IMG/VR virus record: IMGVR_UViG_3300048854_000081
Location: 128,001-192,000 of that record
Source of the DNA: a virus
Taxonomy: Duplodnaviria > Caudoviricetes
Reading direction: 5' to 3' (one strand)
DNA: 64,000 nt
Shown here: one piece after another, positions 24,744-38,654 of the stretch
Numbering within the stretch: the stretch's first letter is position 1
Layout: each line of letters opens with the position of its first letter
Program-made: the position numbers and the translations under genes
The notes under the pieces: model-generated
What the model saw: only the letters and a program-made list of their open reading frames with translations
What the model was told of the DNA's origin: nothing
Database searches by the model: none

Positions 24744-27560
24744 TCAGGTAAATGCAGATGTTGGTGGGATGAACCCGGCTGAAGTATATGGTGAAGACAT
24801 GCGCGTTACGCGAACCTCATCAATATAGCCAACCCAAGGATAGCCAGTATTGTAATAAACACCGATATTTAATTCGGTTGAGCTTCCGAAATTATCTCCA
24901 CTATCAATCGCATTAATGACAACCGTACCATTAATAGCTAACATGATAGCCGTACCGACTCGATATGCGGCCCAATGGAACCAACCAGTAGGAATAGTTG
25001 TAGCTGCTGATGCTTCTACTGATCCATTATGATAAAGTTGCCATGTTAATCCAGCATCATCCCAGCCACAACCAAGAGAGCTTGGTGAGCTATTTAAGAA
25101 CATCTGGAAGATGCCTCTAGGGGTCGCCGTTGCGTTTGCCCAACCTTCTATACAGAAATCACCATCAAGAGTACTACCAATGTTTGTAGTTCTCACATAA
25201 CCACCATTTACGAACAACGATGAACCACCAAATTTAGACTGAGCAGTCGATATTTGGGCTGGTGCAGTGCGTGTCCATGTGGTTGTCCCATGAGAATCCG
25301 TTATCGTCGTACTACCATTTGCTCCATCAAAATGTAGTAATGGACCGGTAGAAGCTATAGGCGAGTGAGTTACAGACGGAGTAGGAGTTACCGGAGGTGT
25401 TTTTGTGACTGATGACGTGACTGTAATGGTTGGCGTGACTGTCGGGGACGTTACTAATGTCTTAGTAATTGATGGTGTTAGTGTAATTGTTGGTGTAGGC
25501 GTTGGTGTTAGTGAAAAAGCATCCAATGTGAACGTACGCTTCTCGGCTGCGCCCCAAGCAGTTTGGTTGGTAATCGTTGCTGCAACTATCCAACTACTAT
25601 TATCATCAGAATATTCTATGGTGAAGTTTTTTGGCGCAAGAGCAGACTGATCCCCACCATTATATTGACCAGTCACACCAACAGTTTTAACCAATGTTGG
25701 CGTACCAAAATCCCAACCAATATAACCAGTAGTGCTACCAGCCGTCCATTTTGTTGAAACTAATCCATCAAACGCAAATGATCCATTATTGGCGCTATTT
25801 GCTTCACTTGATTCCAAATAGTTAGACCCTGCCAAGGCAGATTTTACTAGATTCACCGATGAGGTGCTATCATTATAGAAGGCCAGTTCAGCAACACCTA
25901 CATAGTTTGAATCTCCATTATTTAAGGAAATATTCATTCTCCAATATCTATGTGCAAACGCTGCCCATCCCGATGATGGGGTTGGCGTTGGTGTGGAAGA
26001 TATAGTTGGAGTTACAGAGATTGTAGGTGTAATCGTTCTAGAGACAGTGATACTTTTAGTGACAGATGGGGTTATCGTTATTGTCTTTGTTACAGATGGG
26101 GTTACCGTTGGGGTCAAAGTCTGTGTTGGTGTTGGAGTAGGCGTAATAAAGAAATCACGCTTAATACCAAAATTACGCATATAAGAGTTTGAACCACCAT
26201 TGTGATCGCCATTAAGACCTACAAAGTTACCGAACTGCTGTAATGGAATAGATGTGGCAACTACTGCTCCATCAACCAACATTTCTAATGTAATACCTGC
26301 GTCAGCCAGAGTTTTTACTCTAATAGTTACTGACTTCCAAACACCTGTTGGTAATGCATAGAGTGTTCCACCATTACCGATGGTTGGGTCATCTGTTTGA
26401 GCCCAGCTTGTCCAAGAGAAGTTCTGTAAGAAACCACAGTATAGTGTTGGTCCACCAGAATTTCCATTATTATAGTTTCTGGAATCGAAACGAGCCATGA
26501 TACCATGACCATTCGAATCACAACCAAGTAGAACGTCAGACACAGAATCCGTGTTTACCATGTACACGTCTACTGTGATTTGAGTTGAGATATCAAATGG
26601 CTGCGAACAGTTGATGTAAGCATAAGAATCCTCAGGAACACCAATTACCTGCAAGCTTGGATTTGTTGGATCAGGTGACATCACTGCGCCAACGTTCGTC
26701 CAACCACTTAGTGATGAACCATCAAAGGTACAATCATGCTGTGTTAGTGTTACTGATGGAGTTGGAGTCAATGTTTGCGTAACCGTTGCCGAAGGCGTGA
26801 ATGTACTCGTGTTTGTTGGTGTTGGTGTTATACCCGGAGTACCTGTTAAGGTAGGAGTTGCACTATTACCGGGAGTTCCGGATGGTGTAATAGAAACTGT
26901 GGCTGTTGGAGTAGCCGTATTTGTTGGGGTAAATGTTGGGGTAATAGATGGAGTAATAGAAACGGTAGCTGTTGGTGTTACCGTCGAGTCCATACTACCA
27001 GTTACCGAAACGGATACCGTATTCGATGGAGTAATAGATGGAGTTACCGAAATTGTGTTGGTGACGGACGGCGTTACAGTATTTGTTGCTGTCGCCGTTA
27101 GGGTTGGACTGGGAGACACCGATGGAGTATGTGAAACCGATAGCGTTACCGTCTGAGTTGGTGTCAGCGTTGGTGTAGGACTTGGAGTAATGGATGGATC
27201 AGGATAATTACAATTGTCCGTTCTATCTGTTGAATCCAAAAACACTAAATTTACATAGCCTGTAACCGGCTTTGAGAAGGTAATTTCTATGGCACAACCA
27301 TCAATAATTCTGACATCTGCGGATGCAAGTTCGTTATCTAGGTAAATATTTTCAGTAAACGCTTTCGATTTGGCGTTATGATAGATCGTCCATACGTTAG
27401 ATAGATCATATTGGATATGTTGGTACCCAAATACTGCATCATATACTTCATCCTTGGCGACCAAAACACCATCACTGAATCGTCTGAATAATTGTTTAAT
27501 ATTATTTTTATCGACCGAATGAGTCAGTGATGGTGTTGGAGTTGGGGTTAAGTCCGCCAT
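24744..27560 (-). CDS. Modular adhesin-like virion protein: anchor - TP - ConA-like - TP - discoidin/F5-8C - TP - LamG
   Basis: HRYWRMNI...AFDG...YIGWDFG...PKNFTIEYSDD (discoidin-like); LLHFDGANGST...SKFGGSSL...DFCIEGW...YIDEVRVT (LamG); three TP tracts. Confidence 0.75.
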   Translation of the reverse strand: MADLTPTPTPSLTHSVDKNNIKQLFRRFSDGVLVAKDEVYDAVFGYQHIQYDLSNVWTIYHNAKSKAFTENIYLDNELASADVRIIDGCAIEITFSKPVTGYVNLVFLDSTDRTDNCNYPDPSITPSPTPTLTPTQTVTLSVSHTPSVSPSPTLTATATNTVTPSVTNTISVTPSITPSNTVSVSVTGSMDSTVTPTATVSITPSITPTFTPTNTATPTATVSITPSGTPGNSATPTLTGTPGITPTPTNTSTFTPSATVTQTLTPTPSVTLTQHDCTFDGSSLSGWTNVGAVMSPDPTNPSLQVIGVPEDSYAYINCSQPFDISTQITVDVYMVNTDSVSDVLLGCDSNGHGIMARFDSRNYNNGNSGGPTLYCGFLQNFSWTSWAQTDDPTIGNGGTLYALPTGVWKSVTIRVKTLADAGITLEMLVDGAVVATSIPLQQFGNFVGLNGDHNGGSNSYMRNFGIKRDFFITPTPTPTQTLTPTVTPSVTKTITITPSVTKSITVSRTITPTISVTPTISSTPTPTPSSGWAAFAHRYWRMNISLNNGDSNYVGVAELAFYNDSTSSVNLVKSALAGSNYLESSEANSANNGSFAFDGLVSTKWTAGSTTGYIGWDFGTPTLVKTVGVTGQYNGGDQSALAPKNFTIEYSDDNSSWIVAATITNQTAWGAAEKRTFTLDAFSLTPTPTPTITLTPSITKTLVTSPTVTPTITVTSSVTKTPPVTPTPSVTHSPIASTGPLLHFDGANGSTTITDSHGTTTWTRTAPAQISTAQSKFGGSSLFVNGGYVRTTNIGSTLDGDFCIEGWANATATPRGIFQMFLNSSPSSLGCGWDDAGLTWQLYHNGSVEASAATTIPTGWFHWAAYRVGTAIMLAINGTVVINAIDSGDNFGSSTELNIGVYYNTGYPWVGYIDEVRVTRMSSPYTSAGFIPPTSAFT

Positions 27561-27617: not shown

Positions 27618-30600
27618 TCATGGACATTCACAACAGTTTGGACTTACGAAGGTACCGTCCGTACCGCCCGCACATACGCCCGCACAATCCTTTAGGTTGT
27701 GATGCAAGATGTACGAATTTTCTGTTTCACCAGCCCAAAAACACTTGTCGCCTACTGTAATGTGCTGTACTTCTTGATTACCAGCATCAGTTACAGAAAT
27801 TACTTCATCCCACATTGCTGCACCATTGATCATGGTAGCGATTTCTTCACCATAAACATCTGGTGCTAATAGGAAACCCTTATCCTTCGAAGGAATTGGA
27901 GCAGAGGTGGAACATACTAGCGAAGCACCCGACTTGGTTTCAATTCTTACACAAGGCTTAATTTCAGTCTTAGAGTAAGACACCACACCAGTACCCGGTT
28001 CAAGGGTTCTGTCATCAGCTAGAATCATAGTATCAGACACTTTAATATCACCAGCTAGTTTACCATCAGGTAGATATGAAGATACTGCTACACAACATTG
28101 ATAACCGATACTTGTACAATCTGGACATGCCGAAGCATTAGTTGGTGTAGGAGTCGGTGTTGGTTGTGGTGTATTCGATGGTGCTGGTGTGTTTGATGGT
28201 GCTGGTGTAGGAGTTACAGTCCTAGTTACCGTTGGTGTAATTGTTCTGGTAATGGTAACAGTAGGGGTAATCGTACTTGTTACCGTTGGGGTAATTGTAA
28301 GCGTTGGGGTAGTAGTCAACGTTGGTGTTGGGCTTGGTGTAGGTGTTGGTGATGGAGAAATTGGTACACCCGTGATTGCTTCGTAATGGGAGCGAATTTC
28401 ATCATCTTCCAAAGCTACGCCATACAATGAGAAGTTATCCAAACCACCGACATAGTTGTTTATGCTTGGTACGTTGTATGGAGAACCACCGATGCTTAGA
28501 CCGTAAATTTGCGAGAACAAGTTTGCACCCGAAACTGTTGTCGATGCTTCTTCCTGAGCATTGATGAAGATCGTCTGCTTATTACCCTGTCTTCTACACG
28601 TGATCATGTATGGTGTACCGTCAGCCGACACGGTTGTCTGTACTTCCGAGAATGCCTGATCGGTTGTAGCAATACGGTAAGCATACTTACCAGTATCTCT
28701 ATCAATATACAACATAAACTGTGGCTGCTGCGATCCAGCATTAAACGGAATGTAAACTAGAACTGGAATTGCAGCGTCCTGTTCCGTAACGTCAGCGTCC
28801 GAGAATATTTCAAACGTATAATCACCAGCCAAGTCTAGGAATGGACCATACTGGCCCAATACCATATTGTTCTGAGTAAAATCGTCAGATATTGTGATCG
28901 AACGTGCCGATTGCGAGAACAATCCAGCATCACCCAACGTTATGTTACCATTGAAGAAACCATCGTTACCATATAGTGAACTGTCGTGTGCAACCGTTGT
29001 GTTCAAGTCATCAAACTTGTAGTAAACAATTGGGTTACCATTTAGTACGGCAGTATCATACGCTGTAATTGGTACTGGCGAAGCTGTTGGTGTAATGGTT
29101 GGAACCGGGGTCATCGTAGGTGAGGCCGTGATGGTTGGGGTTACCGTAGGTGTACTAGTCAACGTTGGGGTAATCGTTGTGGTGCTGGTCAACGTTGGAG
29201 TCTGTGATGGTGTAGCAGTCACGCCCGGTGTGGCAGTGATTGTTGGGGTGATCGTTACCGTAGCAGTCATTGTCGGGGTAGCAGTCATCGTCGGAGTTAC
29301 CGATGGTGTCAACGATGGGCTTACCGATACAGTGATTGTTGGTGTAACTGATGGAGTTGGCGAAGGCGATGGTAGAGGTGGTAGGGTTGGAACCACAATG
29401 TTATCATCGATATCACAAGCACCACCCGGCTGAATGTTGTCAGACGTGATTGGAGCATTAACGTTGTTTACGTTAACATTCTGAGAAACGTCAAGCGCTA
29501 CCCATGAGGTCTTAAAGATATCGGAACTGTTGTACTTCAAGCTCATGGCATCATGTAGTGTAGCAAAGAAGATTGTGTTCACATTGGATGCGTCAAAGCC
29601 TTCGAAAATAGCGTACATAGCCGTTACAATATTATTCACATTGTCGAATGAGTATGTGGCTAGGAACGAGTTGATATCAATGTTAATGAAATCCTGAGAC
29701 GGATCATTCAAGATAGCCTGTATAGTCGATAGACCCAATTCTGGCGTGACGAAAATTTGCTCATCACCTAGACCATACTGAGTGTCAGTACCGTATAGGT
29801 TGTCGAATAGAATTCTGTCTAGCGAAGGAATCGTTACCGAAGTATCGATGATCTTGTCAACGACCGGATAACCGATCAATGAAGAGATTAGCTTTTCCCA
29901 CAAGTATTGATCGATCTTCTGTGTCTGCTTCTCACGGAATAGCTTCCATTCAACATGGACATTCTTAAGTGCAAGCGGTGTTCTGACAGCATTCTCAAAC
30001 GAATAATCGTAGATATCACCGTTGTATGGCATTCTGTCTCTCAACGTGAAGTCACGGATGAAGCGTAGAGCGTAACGCTCATCTTCATTAACGCCACCCT
30101 TCAATCCACGCACAACCAATTGGCTGTAACGGATTGGTAGATCGTATGGTAGAGAATCGAATACGTTACCGAAGATGACACCAAAGCCATCGTCCTGATA
30201 TCTTAGACCAGTCATAATCATGTAAGGATTTGGATTTGTAATCAAATCCTTCTGTGCCTGCAACAATGTGGACTGATAATTCGATGTGCTGGTCAATACC
30301 GTAGGCTTATTACTTACCCAAAAGTAGTAATAAGGAATTGGATCACCATTGTTTTCGTTAATCTTGTAGTTGGTCGAGTACGGTGTATCGTACTTGTAAA
30401 CAAGATTCGTCAAATCGTCCTGTGTTGGAATTGGCTTAGGAAGGATAACAGTGATGTAATCCTGAATGTTTGGCTTAACGGTTTGACCCGGTAGCATATC
30501 ACCATAAACATACTGACTGAAATCGTACTGATTTAGGTCCATGGAAAGATCGAACTTACCATTTCTGTAAACATTTACGACACCATCAAATGGGATCACC

Positions 30601-33600
30601 GTGCTATCTTGTACCAATACAGCCAAAATACTGAACTTCAGGTCATCGATCAAGTTCCAGTTAGGATTAGTGATCGAACCATTGTTAAAGTATAGGGAGG
30701 TCTTTGGAGTTCCACCATTGACATAGGTTAGCTCAAATTGTGCTGGCGGAACTGTTGATTCAGTCCACTGATATAGTGTCAACGAACCAACATCCGAAAG
30801 CTTAGCCCAGTTTGCAACACGATCATTGATCAAAGGGAATACACCATTATCGTAGTAAGGAATGTAATCGATCTTGGACATATCCATCCAAACAGTATTT
30901 TCCTTACCCTTCAACCAAATGTTATTGTAGGTATTACCGGTGTAATCCACCGAGTAAACGGCTGGATCAGCTTCGGTCTTGATATCCACTAACGAATAAG
31001 CATACTGGTTTGGCTGGTTTAGGGCTGGATTCCAGATAGCAATTTGATTTACGATAACGCCTGCCGACTTGTCCACAAAAACGGCTGGACTATGGGCATT
31101 ATAGTTATAGGTTAGGCAGCTTACCGATAGGTTAGCTAATGCTCTTGGATCGTTGGTGAACTGAAGAACACGGTTGTTAACCATCGAATAATCAGACAAA
31201 TTGATCATCTGACGCACGATACCAGCATTATCAGTGTAAGAAATCACCACACCATCGTAAGCACCATCAAGAACTAGTAGATATCTACCATTGATGACCT
31301 GCACTTGGGATGCGGCATTCGATATGATTTTTGGTACGCGAGCATTGAACAAGAACGACTTGTTTGGAGCCATCTTATCCAATACGTCAGGCTGATCCCA
31401 CCATCTGGTGTTATCGGTCAAGCTGATTGTAGTGAAGGTGTCATTCAAAGCATTTTCGTCAGGATTGACGAATTCAGCACGGAATTCAGTACCAACAGAG
31501 TCAGCACGCTTTAACTTCAATTCAATGTAGTTCTTTTCCTTAGCATCACCAAAGGTGGCGATTTTGTAAGCCCAAAACTCATCCAAATCAGCATTGTTGA
31601 ACAATGTCTGGTTGGTGTAAGCATTGATGGAAAGGTTGGTACCCTTGTTCTGGATCATACCACGCCAGAAGATGAAATCTGACTTAGCATTGATGTTCAA
31701 ATCCTGCATGTAGGACGAACGACCGGTGTAACCTAGGGAACGACGGACTTCCTGAATTAGAGGCTTGGATTCGATTACCTTATAGGTATCATATAGGAAT
31801 CTTAGATCGTTTACCGCAGATTCAAAGTTCTGCACTAGATCGTCATCAGATACGAAGAAACCACCCATGTTTGGACGTAGAGTCATGGTTTCCTGACGAT
31901 TAAATTCGACATAGAAACGCTGAGTTCTTAGACCCAAATAGGAATCGTAGATTAGGTTATCAGATACCGAATAATCACTAAAGCTAATGATATGCTCGTA
32001 AGCATCCATAAAGGCATGCATACCAGTGATGTACGTAGGATAGGCTGAAATTGTGTTCGAAATGACGGTCTGGTCAGCCAAGAAAATCTGGCTGGATTCA
32101 TCATTTCTAAGAACCAATAGCTTGTCCTTGGTCAAAAGATTACCGTATTGATCGTAAATCTTCTGATTGGTTAGAACGTCCTTTCTATCATTGCTGATTG
32201 TGTCGGCAAGAATACCTTGTGGATGGTTGATCGTCAAAGCCTTCTTGTAAGGATTCAACATGAATTGAGGATATAGAGTCTGCTCTCTGTAAATCTTAAA
32301 GTAATAATTACCCTTACCCGGAGCACCAAATTCAATGAATCGACCAGCCTTGGCATCTGCGTTCGTGTAAGACAACTGGAAACCCTTACCGTCGTTCGTA
32401 GGAACGATGAAGTAAGGCACAAACTGCTTCAATGGATTGTCAAACGGTTCCGGTAGAATGGTATTGTCTGGCGCAATCAGAACTACTCTCTGAGCAAGAT
32501 TTGCTTGAGTGCTAGCAATGTTTACATTGGAATCAGTGTATAGGAATCGGTTATTCTTATAATCGGCAGTGATTTGATATTCAAGATCAGTTTCCTGTCT
32601 CAAGGAAGACTGTGTGTACAACCAATTGATATAGTATTCAATTTCTAGCTGCCATTCGTTCATACGACCAGTCGAAGGGTCGGTGTTATCTGCATCAAGA
32701 ACCTTGGTATCAAAACCAATGCTTGCTAGATAATCCGAATAACCATCGATAAAGTCAACCATCTGCTGGATACCAGTGATGTAGATTGGCTGAGCAACAG
32801 TCTTGACCGCGCGAGTATCCGAGTAATGCTTTCTCCATGAAGTAGCAATTACATTACCACCCATGGCGTTAAAGGTGTACTGGATTCTACCGACGTATGG
32901 CTGTGTAGTTCCGCTTGAAATAGGCGTTATCAAACCCTTCGACTGTAGAGCACCCGCAGAGGTGGTACTTAGCGAGAACTTGTAATCAGTCAATCTTACG
33001 ATGTAATACGGGGTATTGTCATCGAATGGGGCTGGTAGAACGCTATCGGTGGATAGATACACTTCTGTACCGGTTGCCCAAGTATCTGGAAGAGTTCTTC
33101 TATTGGAAGGATAAGCTATACCATCGACTGTAGCCGATGTCAAGGTTACCGATTCAGAAACGAAAATCTTGGTGATCGAATTAGCAATATCGTAATAAAT
33201 CGACTTAATGGTGTATGTACCGTTAAATTGAGTCGAACCACCGATGGTGAAGGTCGAACCTTCTTCAAAGGCACCCGTCAAGTTACCATTAAGGTCAAAG
33301 AACTTCTGGAACTCATAACCACCATTAATTGGAGTGGATACGGCTACATAATTGTCGTGCATGGTAGCAAATAGACCCATATCCGACACGCTGATCGTAG
33401 AATTGGATTGAATGGAGATATTACCATTATTCAAATAAGCAAGCGCGGCAGTACCCAACTGATCATTCAATGCATTGATAGCATCGTTAATGGTTGGAGC
33501 TAAAGCCTGCGTCAAGCTCAATGTAATGGTAGACGAACCAACTGTAACGTTAGCCTTATACTGTGTGGTACCAATATAATTTGTGGTGTCTGATAGATCG

Positions 33601-36600
33601 GCAGTTTCACTATAGCTTACATTCACGTAAGTTACTGGTGAAGTAATACCTGCGTCAACGATGTCGTACGCATAGATTTCAAACTGGTTCGAATTCTTGA
33701 CGACACGGAATTCAAAGTTTTCTTTAGGATAGAACGAAATATCACGACTTACTGGGGAAGTCGTGGTGAACTGTGCTGTCCAACCCGCACCCAAGCTTCT
33801 TGTCTTGGAATACTTTGAAGGAATGCTTAGTGTAGTAGAAATTAACGAATCGAACCAAATGTCATTAAAACCATAAGTTTTCTTTACACCGACGGCATAA
33901 TCCTTGCTGGTGATGTCAAATACTTGACTATCCACGCTCAGGGTTGGCGTATCGATATAGGAACCTACAAGATAGGATAGGTTGGTGTCCCAAGTCTTCC
34001 AAAGAGCCTTGAACTGGGAAGCCTCACCATCATAACCATGATAGCGGTTGTACTGAATGTACCACTGGTTTAGACCATGGGAAACGAATACGTTACCGTT
34101 TGGATCGTTATCACCGTGGAAAATCGTATCCATGTGGGAGAATACACGCATGGTGGTATCGTCCACATCGAGACAGTTAATTTTTTCAAACTTATTGGCA
34201 TTGAACGTTCTGTAGATGAAGTTAATTGGATCGATTTTGAAGGCGATCATCATCTTATCGTAAAGATACTGTGCCGATGTCTTCCAAGCCCATTCATTAG
34301 GGTTACCATCACCGAACGTATAGTCGATGTTTGGTGTATTAACTACCTGATCCAAGTTGGCATCATAAGGAGTTCTTACCTTTGGATTACTGCTGTTAGC
34401 ACTATTCCAGTAAGGAGGTAGCAATGCATCAGCCACATAACCGTCAGCGGTGGATACTGCATTCATGTTAACTGGAATGTAAGCATACTTAGGAACTGTC
34501 GAGTTGGCAAAGCCAGTCGAAATTGTACCATTTGGTAATAGCTGGCTCTGCGGTACGATACCGGTTAGGATATTGTTCCACATGAAGCTCTTCCAACGAC
34601 GAGCACCAGTTGTGTCAAGGTAAGTTGTGTCCCACCATGTAGGCTTGTTGGTGTAACCCTGAAGCTTCCATGGTTCCATGTGAGGATATGGTGTCTTATA
34701 AAGCTTTGTGTACAGAACTTCGAAGCTGGCTGCAACATCGTAAGATGGAAGACCGGTTACTGGGTGGCTCTGAACTGGGGTAAACTCATAATTCCAAGTA
34801 AATGGATCATTCTGGCGGAAACCCGTGTTTAGTAGTGGAGTCTTCACATTGTTGGAAGCTGCCCACGAACTGAACTGTGTATTGCTTAGAGCGGTGTAGC
34901 GTTCATTTGTTTCGCTGGTCGTGTAGTCATAGATCGGCGAAGTAACGACTGGACATGCGTCGTATAGCTCCTGTTCGATGGCTAGTGCCAATCCGGAGTA
35001 CAATGCTTGGAAATCTATGGCTTCCCATGTCGTGTTGACTGCTAAGCGATACAGGGTGCGTGTCTTGGCTACTGTATTCAGACGAACCAGTAGAGAACCG
35101 TTAGGTAGTGTTGGGAATGCTGTTGCTTCCGATGTTACAGTCTGTTGAACAACACCCGACTTGGCTAGATTATTGTAGAACGAAAGAATGACTGAGGTTG
35201 GAAGAGTTACGTCCTGAATATGACCGTCATGACACACGACGGAATGAATACCCATCGAAGCATCGTCTAATAGATATGGAGCAACCTTTTGGGTCAAGCC
35301 AAGGAATGCTGTTGTAGCGATCCAACCCTTGATACCGGTGTCAGTAGCAGCATCATAAGTCGTGCTGTCACCAAACCATTCGTCAACCTTATCATTGGTC
35401 TCATATTCTTCGATCATGTCAGAATTAAAGCCAGCCACAAGACCGGTCAAATTGGTAAAGCTGGTACCAGACAATAGCGAAGAGCATACATTCTTGATGT
35501 ATTCTTCTTGAATTAGATTGTAACCGTTCAAATACTGATCGTTGGCAAACTGGAACAATTGTAACGGAGTTACATTGTTTACGAATACAGACGATACCGA
35601 TAAGTCGAAACCGTTGTTATGTTCCTTGATTGTACCACCTAGACCATAGTTTACGTTATCACTCAAGTAAACCTGATTGATATTGCTAGAGTTTACGATA
35701 CCCGGTACTTTTTGGGATAGGATAATAGTACTGAAATGCTTCAAGCATTCCGATAGATTGATATCCGATCTTAGTTCATGGTCAATGTTGTAGAACCATG
35801 TATTAGGGATATCCCACGAACCATCACTTAGCTTGACCGGTACGAACTGCTCATTCTTCAAACCGCGCTTCCAAATGGTCTGAAGTGGGTAATTAGGCTG
35901 GGAGAAGTTCTTGTACGAATATAGTTCACCGGTATCTGGATTGGACAATTCCTGTACGAAGCCATAATCATTAGTCGATGTATCGTTAACGATTCTCTTC
36001 AATACGTAATTGTTGACCGGATAGGTGTTCTCTTCACGGTAGGTAAAGATGCGGGAAGCAATATCCTTAGCCTGACCATGAATGTCATAGATGTTGAAGA
36101 ATGGATAAACGTTCTTCTCTGGCTTGTCCTGTTCTAGCTTTCTGTATCTGGTTAGGTTAACCAAATCGTAAGGTAGGGTTGGATCAAGCACATTCTGTGT
36201 GGTAACCACACGCACTGCACGTCTACCGATGTCATTTAGGGTGTACTCACCCAATTCTACACGAATTAGATCGTCGATGCTGAATTTAACGTTACTGTTA
36301 AACTTGATAGAACCAACATAATCATTATTGATATCCGAACGAATATCTTGGAAATTACCGTACTGGCGTTCACCATTTAGATAAACACGGATGTCGCCTT
36401 CCTGATAGTCATCATAAAGAACCAAACTATGCAATGAATTATCAAAGCGAATGGTTGGACCATAGACATCACCACCGTAGAAAGATAGCGACTGCCATAC
36501 TAGACCTACGTTGGTTTCAAATTGGTTATTGGTGTCTACATAAGACTTGACAAACACGTCAAGCATAGGGTTTTTATCAGGATTCATGGAAGATGCAGAA

Positions 36601-38654
36601 ACATCCTTCATGCCATAGAAAATCCAATGCTTATCATAACCCGACCACTGGTCACCCTTCGCGGTGAATTCTGGACCGACAAAGGCACCGATTGGTAGGT
36701 CGAAAGGATCAACTACATTTGCGGTTAGAGTAATGAAAGTCTGGAATGCACTAACTACACCAGTCTGCTTGAAAGTTGCCGAAGCGACTGTGTATAGACC
36801 GTTATTGGAATGGGAACCACCAATGCGGATACGTGAACCCGGTAGGATATCCTGTGCAAGATTACCAAACGACTGATTCAAAAGAATAGTGTTGGAGCTT
36901 GAGAAGATAAAGGCTGGATTGTTGGTATCGTTAATGGAAATATTCGATATTTCGAATATGGTTGGTTCAACCGTCGTGTCGCTATACAGGTCAGTGGTTA
37001 GGGTTTTGTACTTCCACTCATAACCAACTAGGGAAACAGAAGACAACTCTAGGAATGGATCGAATTCGATGATTGGTAGCTGTGCTCTGGATTTACCAGA
37101 GAACGACACCAATTCATTCTTATGAATCCACTTGTTAGCAGCCGACCATGCGTCAGTCTGTGTCAGCGACAATTTGTAACGCTGATGTGTAGCCGCTACA
37201 AGAAGCGAGATATTGTACACGACCGAAGTCCACGCAGTACCATTCCACTGGTTTAGCGTGTCTGTGGTTGGATTCACCCACAACTGATAAATGGTTGGGA
37301 ATGTTGGCGGTGTTTCGCTGATAATGTAATCGTAAATGGTCTGACGCGAAATGGTGTAATCCAGTTCGACCTTAGAGAATGCACGGACACTGGAATCGAT
37401 ACCCAAGAAATTGCTTTCTACGGAAATGATCTGATATTCACCAGCATTTGGACCATTCAATACCTGAAGCACGTCACCCGGACGAACCTGTTCATTAACG
37501 AAATTGAAGCTGTTATCACGGATACCATGCTCACCTAGGTTAGAATAACCCGACGAAGACGAAATTAGTAGTTGGTTTCTGAACCAAACTAGACCACCTA
37601 GAAAAATATTGTCCCATTTAGCATTATAATTAATGATCGAATCACCAGAAACCGATTCAAATTCAGCATCCACCAACGATGCCATAGGCATCATCGATAT
37701 AAACTTCCATGAAGGGCTGGTAGGAATAGTTTCGTTAACGATAATTGTGGTGGTATTCGTAGGAATATCATAGGACGAAGACACTGTGGACCATAGAGTA
37801 TCAGTTCCAGCGTTGTTCTTCAAGGTAATGAATACATAACCTTCGGTAAATACCGTGCTAAAGTCACCGGTCAATACAAATGCATTATTGACATTATCGG
37901 TAGATTTGATAGCGATGTTGAAATTATAGATTGTCTGATAGTCAATATCGCTACCTAAACTGTTCAACAACTGAATTTGTGTCTTACCCGTAGTTGGGTT
38001 CAATGAAATGTTTACAATTTCATTAATTAAATAATTATTAGCCGATGCACCAAGCAATACGTAGTCACCGATAAGGAAATTGGTCAGTACGTTACCTGTG
38101 ATAGCCACATTGAATTCATCTACCTTGGTAATAGAGAATGCTGGTCTGATCTTGGTGATGGTCTTCTTGAACTCGACACTACGTGCCTGAGTCCATGTTT
38201 TCTGGTTCTTGATCGTAATATAATCAGGAACGTCATTGATGTCAACCGAATCCCAGTAATAGTCCTGATAATTAACCAATTTGTCTACGTCAATAGGTGG
38301 CACGTAGTTAAACTGTAGAGAATTACCCCATTCATTAAACTTATCAACGTCAACATCCAAGCGTGCGAGACGCTTTAGATAATCTTCGAAAGTAAGGTAT
38401 AGGGTTTCAGAACCAATGGTTGCGGATGCAATTGGTTGTAGCTGGTTATTTTGACGATAGGTGGTTTGTTCGATTACACGCTTAAGCGGGCTTGCCGGAT
38501 CGTTATCCCCGATAATACCCACGATGTGCTGATACTCATCCTTGGTTAGATATCTGTTGAATAAGTTTTCATTTAGATTCTTAAGAAATGCAGTCTTATT
38601 CTGTGCAGGTAAAAAATCATTAAGATTAGTACGTGGCTTTTTGTAATCACTCAT
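27618..38654 (-). CDS. Giant baseplate wedge protein (gp7-like) with C-terminal TP tracts, LamG domain and Hint domain
   Basis: 3678 aa, directly downstream of gp6; PPIDVDKLVNYQDYYW and FWRGMIQNKGT resemble jumbo T4-like wedge proteins; C-terminal modules are visible. Confidence 0.7.
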   Translation of the reverse strand: MSDYKKPRTNLNDFLPAQNKTAFLKNLNENLFNRYLTKDEYQHIVGIIGDNDPASPLKRVIEQTTYRQNNQLQPIASATIGSETLYLTFEDYLKRLARLDVDVDKFNEWGNSLQFNYVPPIDVDKLVNYQDYYWDSVDINDVPDYITIKNQKTWTQARSVEFKKTITKIRPAFSITKVDEFNVAITGNVLTNFLIGDYVLLGASANNYLINEIVNISLNPTTGKTQIQLLNSLGSDIDYQTIYNFNIAIKSTDNVNNAFVLTGDFSTVFTEGYVFITLKNNAGTDTLWSTVSSSYDIPTNTTTIIVNETIPTSPSWKFISMMPMASLVDAEFESVSGDSIINYNAKWDNIFLGGLVWFRNQLLISSSSGYSNLGEHGIRDNSFNFVNEQVRPGDVLQVLNGPNAGEYQIISVESNFLGIDSSVRAFSKVELDYTISRQTIYDYIISETPPTFPTIYQLWVNPTTDTLNQWNGTAWTSVVYNISLLVAATHQRYKLSLTQTDAWSAANKWIHKNELVSFSGKSRAQLPIIEFDPFLELSSVSLVGYEWKYKTLTTDLYSDTTVEPTIFEISNISINDTNNPAFIFSSSNTILLNQSFGNLAQDILPGSRIRIGGSHSNNGLYTVASATFKQTGVVSAFQTFITLTANVVDPFDLPIGAFVGPEFTAKGDQWSGYDKHWIFYGMKDVSASSMNPDKNPMLDVFVKSYVDTNNQFETNVGLVWQSLSFYGGDVYGPTIRFDNSLHSLVLYDDYQEGDIRVYLNGERQYGNFQDIRSDINNDYVGSIKFNSNVKFSIDDLIRVELGEYTLNDIGRRAVRVVTTQNVLDPTLPYDLVNLTRYRKLEQDKPEKNVYPFFNIYDIHGQAKDIASRIFTYREENTYPVNNYVLKRIVNDTSTNDYGFVQELSNPDTGELYSYKNFSQPNYPLQTIWKRGLKNEQFVPVKLSDGSWDIPNTWFYNIDHELRSDINLSECLKHFSTIILSQKVPGIVNSSNINQVYLSDNVNYGLGGTIKEHNNGFDLSVSSVFVNNVTPLQLFQFANDQYLNGYNLIQEEYIKNVCSSLLSGTSFTNLTGLVAGFNSDMIEEYETNDKVDEWFGDSTTYDAATDTGIKGWIATTAFLGLTQKVAPYLLDDASMGIHSVVCHDGHIQDVTLPTSVILSFYNNLAKSGVVQQTVTSEATAFPTLPNGSLLVRLNTVAKTRTLYRLAVNTTWEAIDFQALYSGLALAIEQELYDACPVVTSPIYDYTTSETNERYTALSNTQFSSWAASNNVKTPLLNTGFRQNDPFTWNYEFTPVQSHPVTGLPSYDVAASFEVLYTKLYKTPYPHMEPWKLQGYTNKPTWWDTTYLDTTGARRWKSFMWNNILTGIVPQSQLLPNGTISTGFANSTVPKYAYIPVNMNAVSTADGYVADALLPPYWNSANSSNPKVRTPYDANLDQVVNTPNIDYTFGDGNPNEWAWKTSAQYLYDKMMIAFKIDPINFIYRTFNANKFEKINCLDVDDTTMRVFSHMDTIFHGDNDPNGNVFVSHGLNQWYIQYNRYHGYDGEASQFKALWKTWDTNLSYLVGSYIDTPTLSVDSQVFDITSKDYAVGVKKTYGFNDIWFDSLISTTLSIPSKYSKTRSLGAGWTAQFTTTSPVSRDISFYPKENFEFRVVKNSNQFEIYAYDIVDAGITSPVTYVNVSYSETADLSDTTNYIGTTQYKANVTVGSSTITLSLTQALAPTINDAINALNDQLGTAALAYLNNGNISIQSNSTISVSDMGLFATMHDNYVAVSTPINGGYEFQKFFDLNGNLTGAFEEGSTFTIGGSTQFNGTYTIKSIYYDIANSITKIFVSESVTLTSATVDGIAYPSNRRTLPDTWATGTEVYLSTDSVLPAPFDDNTPYYIVRLTDYKFSLSTTSAGALQSKGLITPISSGTTQPYVGRIQYTFNAMGGNVIATSWRKHYSDTRAVKTVAQPIYITGIQQMVDFIDGYSDYLASIGFDTKVLDADNTDPSTGRMNEWQLEIEYYINWLYTQSSLRQETDLEYQITADYKNNRFLYTDSNVNIASTQANLAQRVVLIAPDNTILPEPFDNPLKQFVPYFIVPTNDGKGFQLSYTNADAKAGRFIEFGAPGKGNYYFKIYREQTLYPQFMLNPYKKALTINHPQGILADTISNDRKDVLTNQKIYDQYGNLLTKDKLLVLRNDESSQIFLADQTVISNTISAYPTYITGMHAFMDAYEHIISFSDYSVSDNLIYDSYLGLRTQRFYVEFNRQETMTLRPNMGGFFVSDDDLVQNFESAVNDLRFLYDTYKVIESKPLIQEVRRSLGYTGRSSYMQDLNINAKSDFIFWRGMIQNKGTNLSINAYTNQTLFNNADLDEFWAYKIATFGDAKEKNYIELKLKRADSVGTEFRAEFVNPDENALNDTFTTISLTDNTRWWDQPDVLDKMAPNKSFLFNARVPKIISNAASQVQVINGRYLLVLDGAYDGVVISYTDNAGIVRQMINLSDYSMVNNRVLQFTNDPRALANLSVSCLTYNYNAHSPAVFVDKSAGVIVNQIAIWNPALNQPNQYAYSLVDIKTEADPAVYSVDYTGNTYNNIWLKGKENTVWMDMSKIDYIPYYDNGVFPLINDRVANWAKLSDVGSLTLYQWTESTVPPAQFELTYVNGGTPKTSLYFNNGSITNPNWNLIDDLKFSILAVLVQDSTVIPFDGVVNVYRNGKFDLSMDLNQYDFSQYVYGDMLPGQTVKPNIQDYITVILPKPIPTQDDLTNLVYKYDTPYSTNYKINENNGDPIPYYYFWVSNKPTVLTSTSNYQSTLLQAQKDLITNPNPYMIMTGLRYQDDGFGVIFGNVFDSLPYDLPIRYSQLVVRGLKGGVNEDERYALRFIRDFTLRDRMPYNGDIYDYSFENAVRTPLALKNVHVEWKLFREKQTQKIDQYLWEKLISSLIGYPVVDKIIDTSVTIPSLDRILFDNLYGTDTQYGLGDEQIFVTPELGLSTIQAILNDPSQDFINIDINSFLATYSFDNVNNIVTAMYAIFEGFDASNVNTIFFATLHDAMSLKYNSSDIFKTSWVALDVSQNVNVNNVNAPITSDNIQPGGACDIDDNIVVPTLPPLPSPSPTPSVTPTITVSVSPSLTPSVTPTMTATPTMTATVTITPTITATPGVTATPSQTPTLTSTTTITPTLTSTPTVTPTITASPTMTPVPTITPTASPVPITAYDTAVLNGNPIVYYKFDDLNTTVAHDSSLYGNDGFFNGNITLGDAGLFSQSARSITISDDFTQNNMVLGQYGPFLDLAGDYTFEIFSDADVTEQDAAIPVLVYIPFNAGSQQPQFMLYIDRDTGKYAYRIATTDQAFSEVQTTVSADGTPYMITCRRQGNKQTIFINAQEEASTTVSGANLFSQIYGLSIGGSPYNVPSINNYVGGLDNFSLYGVALEDDEIRSHYEAITGVPISPSPTPTPSPTPTLTTTPTLTITPTVTSTITPTVTITRTITPTVTRTVTPTPAPSNTPAPSNTPQPTPTPTPTNASACPDCTSIGYQCCVAVSSYLPDGKLAGDIKVSDTMILADDRTLEPGTGVVSYSKTEIKPCVRIETKSGASLVCSTSAPIPSKDKGFLLAPDVYGEEIATMINGAAMWDEVISVTDAGNQEVQHITVGDKCFWAGETENSYILHHNLKDCAGVCAGGTDGTFVSPNCCECP
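27696..28094 (-). other. Hint (intein-like) domain, 133 aa
   Basis: Starts CVAVSSYL, contains VRIETKSGASLVCS, ends VQHITV...ILHHN. Confidence 0.8.

Follow-up and report, generated by a model that had tools for sequence, protein, structure and literature searches.

A Hint domain set within a split cysteine motif at the end of a giant phage virion protein, with features that suggest BIL-like self-processing

Class 1 inteins begin with Cys or Ser, end in His-Asn, carry a T-x-x-H motif in block B and are followed by Cys, Ser or Thr at position +1; they occupy conserved sites of essential proteins, for which intein-less alleles exist. In most inteins the block-B His plays an important part in the N-S acyl shift, and position 4 of block F is usually Asp. 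The thioester formed by the Hog domain of Hedgehog is resolved by a non-peptide route, with no terminal Asn cleavage and with use of a sterol-recognition region. Type A BIL domains (PT-HINT, PF07591) have an N-terminal Cys and a C-terminal His-Asn, lack a +1 nucleophile, and are placed in variable regions of surface or secreted proteins. They form a thioester, the Asn cyclises, and an amine then attacks the thioester, which amounts to splicing (PMC4031507); in vitro, cleavage products dominate and spliced product is the minority (PMC4031507, PMC7664689). In BIL2 of Tetrahymena BUBL1, a eukaryotic domain with ubiquitin-like flanks, a block-B-type His (H69) and Zn activation, the thioester is resolved by a Lys side chain, and an isopeptide forms with no need for ATP (PMC8616854). 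Phage tail spikes and fibres carry a self-cleaving C-terminal module in the peptidase S74 chaperone domains, the only such device noted in a survey of jumbo phages (PMC7824862). For the locus described here S74 is a functional analogue only, with Ser-Lys protease chemistry and an unrelated fold.

The locus encodes the last 170 residues of a 3678-aa protein from a 350-kb soil phage, where a Hint domain lies within a small, putative Cys-rich knob. The window is the whole stretch of phage DNA that was analysed, 64,000 nucleotides in length; feature positions within it are given in Table 1. The 3678-aa protein matches phrog_10938, which PHROGs labels a virion structural protein. Over residues 2-2875 it shares 40% identity with ORF325 of XacN1. 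That gene comes after the XacN1 baseplate wedge gene, and the 3678-aa protein has the same gene order. The description "giant baseplate protein", used in an earlier note on this DNA, is a reasonable deduction. The XacN1 orthologue ends in a different module, and the XacN1 paper contains no data on the Hint-bearing proteins of that phage. A megablast search of the region against deposited phages gave no DNA match. The Laminin_G_3 domain lies upstream of the last Thr/Pro tract; a match of PDB entry 8zvk_A to residues 3432-3586 is taken as compositional, due to this tract. Translation of window positions 28095-28130 gives the N-flank, ACPDCTSIGYQC (residues 3509-3520), and the 133-aa module that follows runs from CVAVSS to ILHHN (residues 3521-3653). 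Its block B reads C-S-T-S-A-P, with no His, and the +1 residue after N3653 is Leu (L3654). The 25-aa C-flank, which includes a conserved P-N-C-C, differs from the ubiquitin-like flanks of BIL2, as does the Thr/Pro linker with its Cys motif on the other side; the stop codon occupies 27618-27620.

Table 1. Features of the 3678-aa protein gene and its C-terminal module, in window coordinates.
Feature	Position	Strand	Basis
3678-aa virion (baseplate-associated) protein, module at C-terminus	27618..38654	-	ORF list, translation, phrog_10938
Laminin_G_3 (ConA-like lectin) domain, residues 3276-3420	28395..28829	-	Pfam PF13385, E 2.1e-8
Thr/Pro-rich linker, residues 3421-3508, up to Hint module	28131..28394	-	Translation
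N-flank Cys motif C-x2-C-x6-C (C3510, C3513, C3520)	28095..28130	-	Translation
Hint (Hedgehog/intein) domain, C3521-N3653, 133 aa	27696..28094	-	Profile, AlphaFold2, Foldseek, VIA-align
Cys1 = C3521, predicted thioester nucleophile	28092..28094	-	130/130 family members; aligns to intein residue 1
Block B, S3582-T-S-A3585	27900..27911	-	S 130/130, A 130/130; aligned to gp41-1 S-E-E-H
H3631, block F position 4	27762..27764	-	His in 107/130 members
H3651-H3652-N3653, module end	27696..27704	-	H 130/130, H 128/130, N 130/130
K3655 (+2), candidate amine acceptor	27690..27692	-	+2 Lys in 104/130 members
C-flank, 25 aa, residues 3654-3678, five Cys (C3657, C3661, C3674, C3675, C3677)	27621..27695	-	

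The earlier note had proposed a Hint domain from the letters of the sequence, and a Hint fold is indeed predicted. The AlphaFold2 model has a pLDDT of 87 overall and of 93-98 in the Hint core. Foldseek with this model (probability 1.00, E 1e-7) matched DnaB mini-inteins, the C. thermocellum BIL domain and Tetrahymena BIL2, with TM up to 0.80 to the mini-inteins. VIA-align gave Z 18.0-18.5 and rmsd 1.5-2.1 Å over 120-131 residues for Hedgehog and the DnaB, RecA and gp41-1 inteins, and paired model residues 25 to 157 (C3521 to N3653) with intein residues 1 to the end. The top Z values (18.2-18.5) belonged to Hedgehog Hog (PDB 1at0, 6tyy). Class 1 mini-inteins (Ssp and Npu DnaB, gp41-1, Mtu RecA; Z 18.0-18.4) were among the best structural matches and were the only PDB matches at the sequence level, where six of the seven profile matches were inteins. 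The C. thermocellum type A BIL domain (PDB 2lwy) shares the fold, with Z 16.6 and rmsd 2.1 Å over 129 residues, and so does BIL2 (PDB 6y75, 6tmm; Z 16.7). The module's own-family profile recovered 819 representative proteins; the Pfam, NCBIfam and PHROGs models gave no Hint annotation. For the module of the 3678-aa protein, Pfam showed no match at E ≤ 1 to Hint, Hint_2, PT-HINT or Intein_splicing, which sets it apart from type A BIL domains; across 130 family members, the Pfam Hint models touched three, weakly, one of them through PT-HINT (PF07591) at E 0.037. NCBIfam returned a sub-threshold DnaB-intein stretch only. These missing matches are a gap in the curated libraries and not evidence against the fold, and we regard residues 3521-3653 as a genuine Hint domain with hardly any reservation.

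The 819 representatives were found at E ≤ 1e-3, 81 of them at E ≤ 1e-30, and the match extends exactly from Cys1 to the Asn, well outside what chance would produce. This large Hint family is unnamed and is missed by Pfam and NCBIfam. Its hosts are phage tail and baseplate proteins, unlike those of type A BIL domains, and the module stands at or near their C-termini, a position shared with Hedgehog Hog. A set of 130 family sequences shares only ~45% identity, with Cys1, the block-B Ser, the terminal His-His-Asn and one Phe invariant or nearly so. All 130 have Ala at the position of the catalytic block-B His of inteins, after a Ser at the intein Thr position, so that the block-B motif is S-x-x-A and aligns with S-E-E-H of the gp41-1 intein. 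Replacement of this His by an invariant Ala counts against the processing scheme favoured below, whose first step would have to rely on a rearranged active site. H3631 is a candidate substitute for the absent His, judging from its alignment with the Asp in the L-I-D-I-E-V segment of gp41-1, which we take to be D107, at block F position 4. A D107C variant of gp41-1 is the subject of PDB entry 6riz, and a class-3 WCT motif has been engineered into the same intein (PMC7664689). The family also has a non-nucleophilic +1 residue and, in 80% of members, a Lys at +2. The earlier note had read the chemistry as BIL-like and not canonical, from Cys1, the terminal His-Asn and the missing +1 nucleophile and block-B His, and these family-wide features fit that reading; the block-B Ala, the block F His and the conserved +2 Lys distinguish the family from type A BIL domains. 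Our literature search found no experiment on any member of the family and no paper on the device.

Could the Hint domain be an ordinary selfish mini-intein that splices canonically? We consider this extremely unlikely. The fold, Cys1 and the His-Asn (C3521, H3652, N3653) agree with such an element, but Leu at +1 contradicts it, and Ser, Thr or Cys is found at +1 in only 8 of 166 family junctions (5%). The domain, moreover, lacks a homing endonuclease and is placed at chain ends or in linkers, not at conserved sites of host proteins; its GC content equals that of its surroundings, the phage genome holds three paralogous copies, and no intein-less alleles were found.

It is also improbable, in our view, that the domain performs no processing and is a stable insert that serves, say, in binding or as a spacer. 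It would then loop out of a Cys-rich mini-domain, the two halves of which would fold together because a Hint domain has adjacent ends. The lost block-B His and the failure to find a Hint-less allele speak for such an insert; conservation of Cys1, His-His-Asn and the block-B Ser through 130 divergent sequences is hard to explain without catalysis.

The residues on either side of the module bear on how a thioester would be resolved. Lys occupies +2 in 104 of the 130 sequences and +1 in a further 17, hence +1 or +2 in 121 of 130, and +2 in 117 of 166 junctions of the wider set. This Lys is kept even where the tail has only 2-6 residues, and tails of at most 10 residues make up 31% of family junctions. 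The Lys chemistry of BIL2 is a possible model for the +2 Lys. Most family members have a poly-Gly N-flank and, as in Hedgehog, a Gly-Cys junction. One might imagine that an outside nucleophile, such as a lipid, a glycan or a Lys in a different virion protein, captures the thioester and anchors the tip of the stalk by a covalent bond, as in the cholesteroylation of Hedgehog or the ubiquitin-like conjugation by BUBL. Both Hedgehog and BIL2 set a precedent and match the structure strongly, and the poly-Gly flank recalls ubiquitin-like Gly-Gly ends. Here, however, the -1 residue is a Cys within a conserved motif and not a Gly tail, and the same chain offers an acceptor Lys at +2. The module further differs from Hedgehog in its invariant His-His-Asn, in having only 25 residues after it and in the lack of any extra sterol-type region in the model. 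No partner is indicated by the data, and we think such intermolecular ligation very unlikely; the suggestion in the earlier note that the mucin stalk becomes attached to another molecule finds nothing to lean on.

What is new here is a Cys-flanked subfamily, in which the Hint domain is embedded in a conserved two-part Cys motif, a difference from type A BIL domains. It comprises 19 sequences, including a 453-aa fibre-like paralogue in the same phage, and places the Hint domain between C-x2-C-x6-C and phi-K-x-C...P-N-C-C. The N-flank motif is conserved in 16 of 18 subfamily proteins examined, and the other two have C-x2-C only. In the 18 proteins and in locus L016 the N- and C-flank Cys clusters occur together, and never one alone. 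The motif is conserved for 11 residues on the upstream side of the junctions and for ~20 on the downstream side, W-x2-P-N-C-C included. When the Hint domain is left out, the sum of flank Cys is even in 18 of 18 proteins (6, 8, 10 or 14), with tail counts of 3, 5, 6, 7 or 11 that are odd where the N-flank has three Cys and even where it has two; the tail count is even in both proteins without the -1 Cys. The Hint core itself contains 2, 3 or 4 Cys and obeys no parity rule. The 18 sequences are related, and the rule corresponds to ~7 independent parity-preserving changes, counted by eye on a quick tree that does not separate one from several origins of the Cys flanks.

Flank Cys are lost in pairs, namely those at +3 and +6, and those before the Trp and after N-C-C. 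The reported invariant core has three Cys on each side, and at least one pair must therefore span the junction. From the even sums, the paired losses and this 3+3 core, we infer that in the mature protein the two flanks are probably tied into a single disulfide knot. A Zn(Cys)4 clasp was rated below disulfides, since four does not divide the flank counts of 6, 10 and 14 and since Cys are lost in twos; the six-Cys core may hold a metal site. Reassembly of the flanking cysteines, as the earlier note had imagined it, accords with clusters that always occur together and always add up to an even number. Retention of the 25-aa peptide looks more probable than its release as a free product, which that note had also raised.

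A different fate for the flanks would follow if the domain were a cap that removes itself: the thioester at C3520-C3521 would be hydrolysed, the Hint domain and 25-aa tail discarded, and the stalk left ending at C3520, and the role of the flank Cys would be limited to timing the cut, as a switch that responds to redox state or metal. We judge this unlikely. BIL domains yield mainly cleavage products, the many short tails in the family suit it, and paralogue P0175 of the same phage has a tail of only 8 residues; redox traps are known in inteins (PDB 3nzm is among the structural matches), as are effects of Zn (PMC8616854). But the stalk would keep an odd number of flank Cys (three), and neither the parity of the tail count with the N-flank count, nor the paired losses of tail Cys, nor the conserved W-x2-P-N-C-C ~20 residues from the junction would be explained, any more than the invariant terminal Asn and the +2 Lys. 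Parity and co-occurrence do not argue in the same way against an unprocessed protein, because flanks folded together with the Hint domain looped out fit the parity rule equally well. The absence of parity among the Cys of the Hint core, on the other hand, is as expected if the domain is missing from the oxidised mature form.

The explanation that we favour, tentatively, is excision in the manner of a type A BIL domain, in which the flanks are retained side by side and perhaps joined again by way of an amine; that BIL domains give mostly cleavage products in vitro speaks against it. Cys3521 would attack the C3520-C3521 peptide bond to form a thioester, with C3520 (-1) giving the carbonyl, and cyclisation of Asn3653 would cut the chain directly after that residue. 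Since +1 is Leu, the canonical branched intermediate cannot form. The Hint domain would leave the two-part Cys motif while the flanks stay together, and re-joining would come from attack on the thioester by an amine; the candidates are the epsilon-amine of K3655 and the alpha-amine that Asn cyclisation exposes on L3654. Once the cell has lysed, oxidation of the flanks would give a knob of ~37 residues with eight Cys in four disulfides, forming the distal tip of the Thr/Pro stalk. The parts of this scheme differ in strength. Self-processing of some kind is highly probable; that both flanks are kept in the mature protein appears fairly probable from the Cys pattern; and covalent re-ligation, for which the analogy with BIL domains is the guide, is conceivable but less than probable. 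More doubtful again is the full picture of non-selfish splicing in virion maturation, in which a Hint domain without +1 nucleophile or block-B His would join a split Cys knot by an amine, possibly as a Lys3655 isopeptide branch, and an adhesin-like knob of eight Cys would arise only after splicing and oxidation. Neither of two AlphaFold2 runs, the second with flank columns from the subfamily only, predicted a knob structure, and flank pLDDT was 50-67 in both.

We searched for Hint-less versions of the motif in several ways. A contiguous Hint-less Cys motif was found neither in five phage records nor among 120 homologues, and the evidence by which splicing of inteins is usually proved is therefore missing. 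The 453-aa paralogue has APSNTP-type repeats before its Hint module, like the linker of the 3678-aa protein, and the linker DNA of the two shows patchy identity of 74-80%; among 96 Hint-less homologues of this paralogue, none has the Cys tail. When the phage genome itself was scanned in six frames, the P-N-C-C tail turned up in the two Hint proteins and nowhere else, and five related phage records, scanned by pattern, contained nothing beyond the known copies and short chance frames outside genes. One frame considered as a motif carrier, an 80-aa startless antisense frame in L034, was judged to be chance. Hint-less alleles were also sought for the long-tailed member P0014, with only three proteins returned, and Pfam matched neither the two flanks hypothetically joined nor the long P0168 tail. 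Scanning bacterial genomes with the subfamily alignment, we identified nine loci in Burkholderiales and Xanthomonadales-like genomes, none of which (0/9) has Cys flanks.

Self-processing at the ends of phage fibres has so far been known from the S74 chaperone-protease. If our reading is true, a second, thioester-based device occurs across hundreds of phage tail proteins and represents a new maturation route. Intein chemists would have reason to look at its rearranged site, in which block B has Ala and block F has His at position 4, and the conserved +2 Lys hints at amine or isopeptide ligation. The co-varying flank Cys motif serves as a built-in reporter of whether flanks are ligated or discarded; should the splicing reading be true, the parity rule would be the first sequence-level evidence in this family for ligation of flanks over mere self-cutting. 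If the family does ligate, a compact ligation tool that needs no +1 nucleophile may be possible.

Translating the exact coordinates reproduced the three segments that the earlier note had described at the end of the giant, baseplate-associated protein, namely an N-flank, a 133-aa module and a five-Cys tail, together with a block B that reads C-S-T-S-A-P without His, and Leu at +1 (numbering starts after the terminal Asn; -1 precedes Cys1). We detected no Pfam match for the module at E <= 1, and nothing in NCBIfam beyond a sub-threshold DnaB-intein stretch; DnaB mini-inteins were the sole matches in a PDB sequence search (E 0.11 and 1.4). An exhaustive HMMER search identified 819 representative proteins at E <= 1e-3, 81 of them at E <= 1e-30, with matches that span exactly Cys1 to Asn. 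When a profile built from 130 family sequences was searched against the PDB, six of the seven matches were inteins, the best being gp41-1 (E 0.006). AlphaFold2 models based on the 130-sequence alignment had a core pLDDT of 93-98, and Foldseek matched the model only to inteins, BIL domains and Hedgehog (E down to 1e-7, TM up to 0.80). VIA-align superimposed it on Hedgehog 6tyy and 1at0, Ssp DnaB, Mtu RecA and gp41-1 with Z 18.0-18.5 and rmsd 1.5-2.1 A over 120-131 residues, in a register that places C3521 on residue 1 and N3653 on the last residue. Thus, a Hint fold is predicted, and the assignment that the earlier note had made dependent on such a prediction holds, since profile matches, AlphaFold2, Foldseek and VIA-align all point to Hint, though Pfam and NCBIfam are silent.

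Features of the giant protein and its paralogues
Feature	Location	Strand	Remark
Giant protein ORF, 3678 aa	window 27618-38654	-	module at its C-terminus
N-flank A-C-P-D-C-T-S-I-G-Y-Q-C	residues 3509-3520		translation of exact coordinates
Hint module, 133 aa	C3521 to N3653		translation of exact coordinates
C-terminal tail, 25 aa, five Cys	after N3653		translation of exact coordinates
615-aa and 453-aa fibre-like paralogues, adjacent (loci L005, L006)	G000:C1:265072-268286 (the phage's own record), outside window

We counted invariant residues over the 130 family sequences, which are ~45% identical to the module. Cys1 is present in 130/130, and the terminal His-His-Asn in 130, 128 and 130 sequences, respectively. 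Block B opens with a Cys-Ser pair (Cys, C3581 here, in 129/130; Ser in 130/130), a pair also found in gp41-1. The position of the intein block-B His, aligned to the His of gp41-1 S-E-E-H, is Ala in all 130. At block F position 4, His occurs in 107/130, aligned to the Asp of the gp41-1 L-I-D-I-E-V segment, which we take to be D107. One Phe is kept in every sequence, and C3638, the Cys of D-K-C-F-W inside the core, in 93/130. The -1 residue is mostly a Gly that closes a poly-Gly run; the family has Leu, Val, Ile, Lys, Met or Ala at +1, with Ser, Thr or Cys in only 8 of 166 junctions. Lys is at +2 in 104/130 sequences and at +1 in a further 17, and this flank Lys is retained even in ORFs with only two to six residues after Asn. 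Tails have <=10 residues in 31% of junctions and >30 in 40%.

A literature search found no paper describing this family. Most of its host proteins come from phage tails or virions; hosts include PKD-repeat tail proteins, DUF4815 proteins, proteins that end with a tape-measure-like motif, XacN1, PhiXhv, RTH11 and Stenotrophomonas DLP_6 'VlrC' proteins, and a few RHS-repeat proteins. RHS-repeat proteins (DUF6531 plus RHS repeats) at P0072 and L048 (Burkholderiales MAG) carry Hint close to their N-terminus, with no obvious phage tail context. Several phage proteins (P0014, P0038, P0009, P0061, L010, L015) carry Hint between two Gly-rich linkers, with a conserved C-terminal G-P-G-T-G-x-S-D-S-I-P-A-x-L-S-x-G-E behind it whose PHROGs match is to tape measure proteins; since linkers and motif surround it, Hint is often internal rather than a cap. 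Six proteins (P0043, P0071, P0075, P0085, P0125, P0128) have tandem Hint domains, the second beginning 5-7 residues past the first His-Asn; in five of these the protein ends with the second copy, whose terminus is degenerate (H-C-G, H-H-D, H-H-S or V-H-E) and so has no Asn.

Within the 350,036-bp virus record, the gene upstream of the giant protein matches baseplate wedge family phrog_10646 (E 7e-293). Residues 2-2875 share ~40% identity with ORF325 of Xanthomonas jumbo phage XacN1 and its relatives, and in XacN1 this gene likewise comes after the baseplate wedge gene. In the appendage here, a LamG domain (Pfam E 2e-8) lies between two Thr/Pro tracts, the second of which is followed by the Cys-Hint-Cys unit. 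We regard this appendage as a swappable tip because the XacN1 orthologue ends in a different, Hint-less module behind its own Thr/Pro linkers (L033:11428-12927, the ORF325 C-terminus); between these linkers lie two copies of a Cys-bracketed acidic repeat, C-G-x-G-x-D-D-R...E-D-G-x-C-R-I-V-E-P. GC across the Hint module equals that of its surroundings. A PDB sequence match to 8zvk_A ('AaBgIC'; E 2e-19) on the Thr/Pro tract (residues 3432-3586, window 28095-28400) is probably compositional, to the Pro/Thr linker. Downstream, a 938-aa protein (window 24744-27560, - strand) contains F5/8 type C (discoidin) and LamG domains with Thr/Pro tracts between them, and its C-terminal part also matches a baseplate wedge PHROG.

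The phage has three Hint-family copies, the other two being in the fibre-like paralogues, which have an N-terminal domain (phrog_15511) and Thr/Pro stalks in common and both end in the Hint family; a third paralogue downstream of the pair has a different end. The junction of the 615-aa protein is Gly|Cys and its tail has 8 residues; the 453-aa protein has Hint between the same Cys motifs as the giant protein. With further members from homologue searches and IMG/VR, this Cys-flanked subfamily comprises 18 proteins plus locus L016. Its N-flank reads C-x2-C-x6-C|C, usually with P-F-x3 ahead, and its C-flank phi-K-C-C-Y-C-x(4-6)-C-x-W-x2-P-N-C-C-x-C; the two clusters are never found apart. A quick tree groups the 15 fibre-type members in one clade (SH-aLRT 95), with the Hint of the giant protein beside it in no settled position; two variants fall elsewhere with weak support. 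A single origin of the subfamily is possible.

We summed the Cys of both flanks, excluding Hint, in the 18 proteins. The sum is even in all of them (6, 8, 10 or 14), these being related sequences with only about seven independent parity-preserving changes, counted by eye on the quick tree. Tail Cys alone number 3, 5, 6, 7 or 11: the tail count is odd in each of the 16 proteins whose N-flank has three Cys, and is six in the two without the -1 Cys. The Hint core's own Cys (2, 3 or 4) follow no parity rule. Losses come in pairs, with {+3, +6} missing in P0157, P0162 and the giant protein, and {pre-Trp, post-NCC} in P0156, P0165, L016 and P0162. An even count with pairwise loss is what a fully disulfide-bonded unit usually shows; such a unit would here comprise both flanks and exclude Hint. 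Counts of 6, 10 and 14 are more in line with pairs than with Zn(Cys)4 sites. Across the 16 proteins and L016 that have the P-N-C-C anchor, the constant Cys are at -11, -8 and -1 upstream and at +4 and the N-C-C pair downstream. As each flank has three, one or more bonds must cross the junction. AlphaFold gave the flanks a pLDDT of only 50-67.

Type A BILs carry Cys1 and His-Asn but no +1 nucleophile; an N-terminal thioester is formed, Asn cyclisation cuts the chain at the C-terminus, and the flanks can then be joined by attack of the freed amine on the thioester, with cleavage dominating in vitro (PMC4031507; PMC7664689). In Tetrahymena BIL2, a Lys side chain resolves the thioester and an isopeptide results; Zn binding is coupled to the active-site His (PMC8616854). 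The module would work like a type A BIL, but by sequence is not a PT-HINT member. We ruled out a class 1 intein from the +1 residue, block B and insertion logic. In the processing we propose, C3521 would form a thioester with the C3520 carbonyl, H3631 may replace the missing block-B His, N3653 would cyclise, and the thioester would be captured by the alpha-amine of L3654 or the epsilon-amine of K3655. The thioester might alternatively be captured by an external nucleophile, and the ligation to another molecule that the earlier note had envisaged found no support here.

Virion assembly takes place in the reducing cytoplasm, so if two cuts simply freed the tail there, it would be lost with no disulfide yet able to retain it. 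Since the parity rule puts the tail in the mature unit, we argue, indirectly, that the flanks are covalently re-joined; after lysis, the 12-residue N-flank motif and 25-residue tail would oxidise to an 8-Cys knob. As alternatives, cleavage may be delayed until after oxidation, or Hint may be looped out with no processing. Reassembly of the flanks, as first suggested in the earlier note, is supported by Cys parity, pairwise loss and co-occurrence of the clusters, and the 25-aa peptide is more likely to be retained than to be released free. The Cys-flanked subfamily makes it possible to test directly whether the flanks are ligated or discarded in this widespread phage Hint family.
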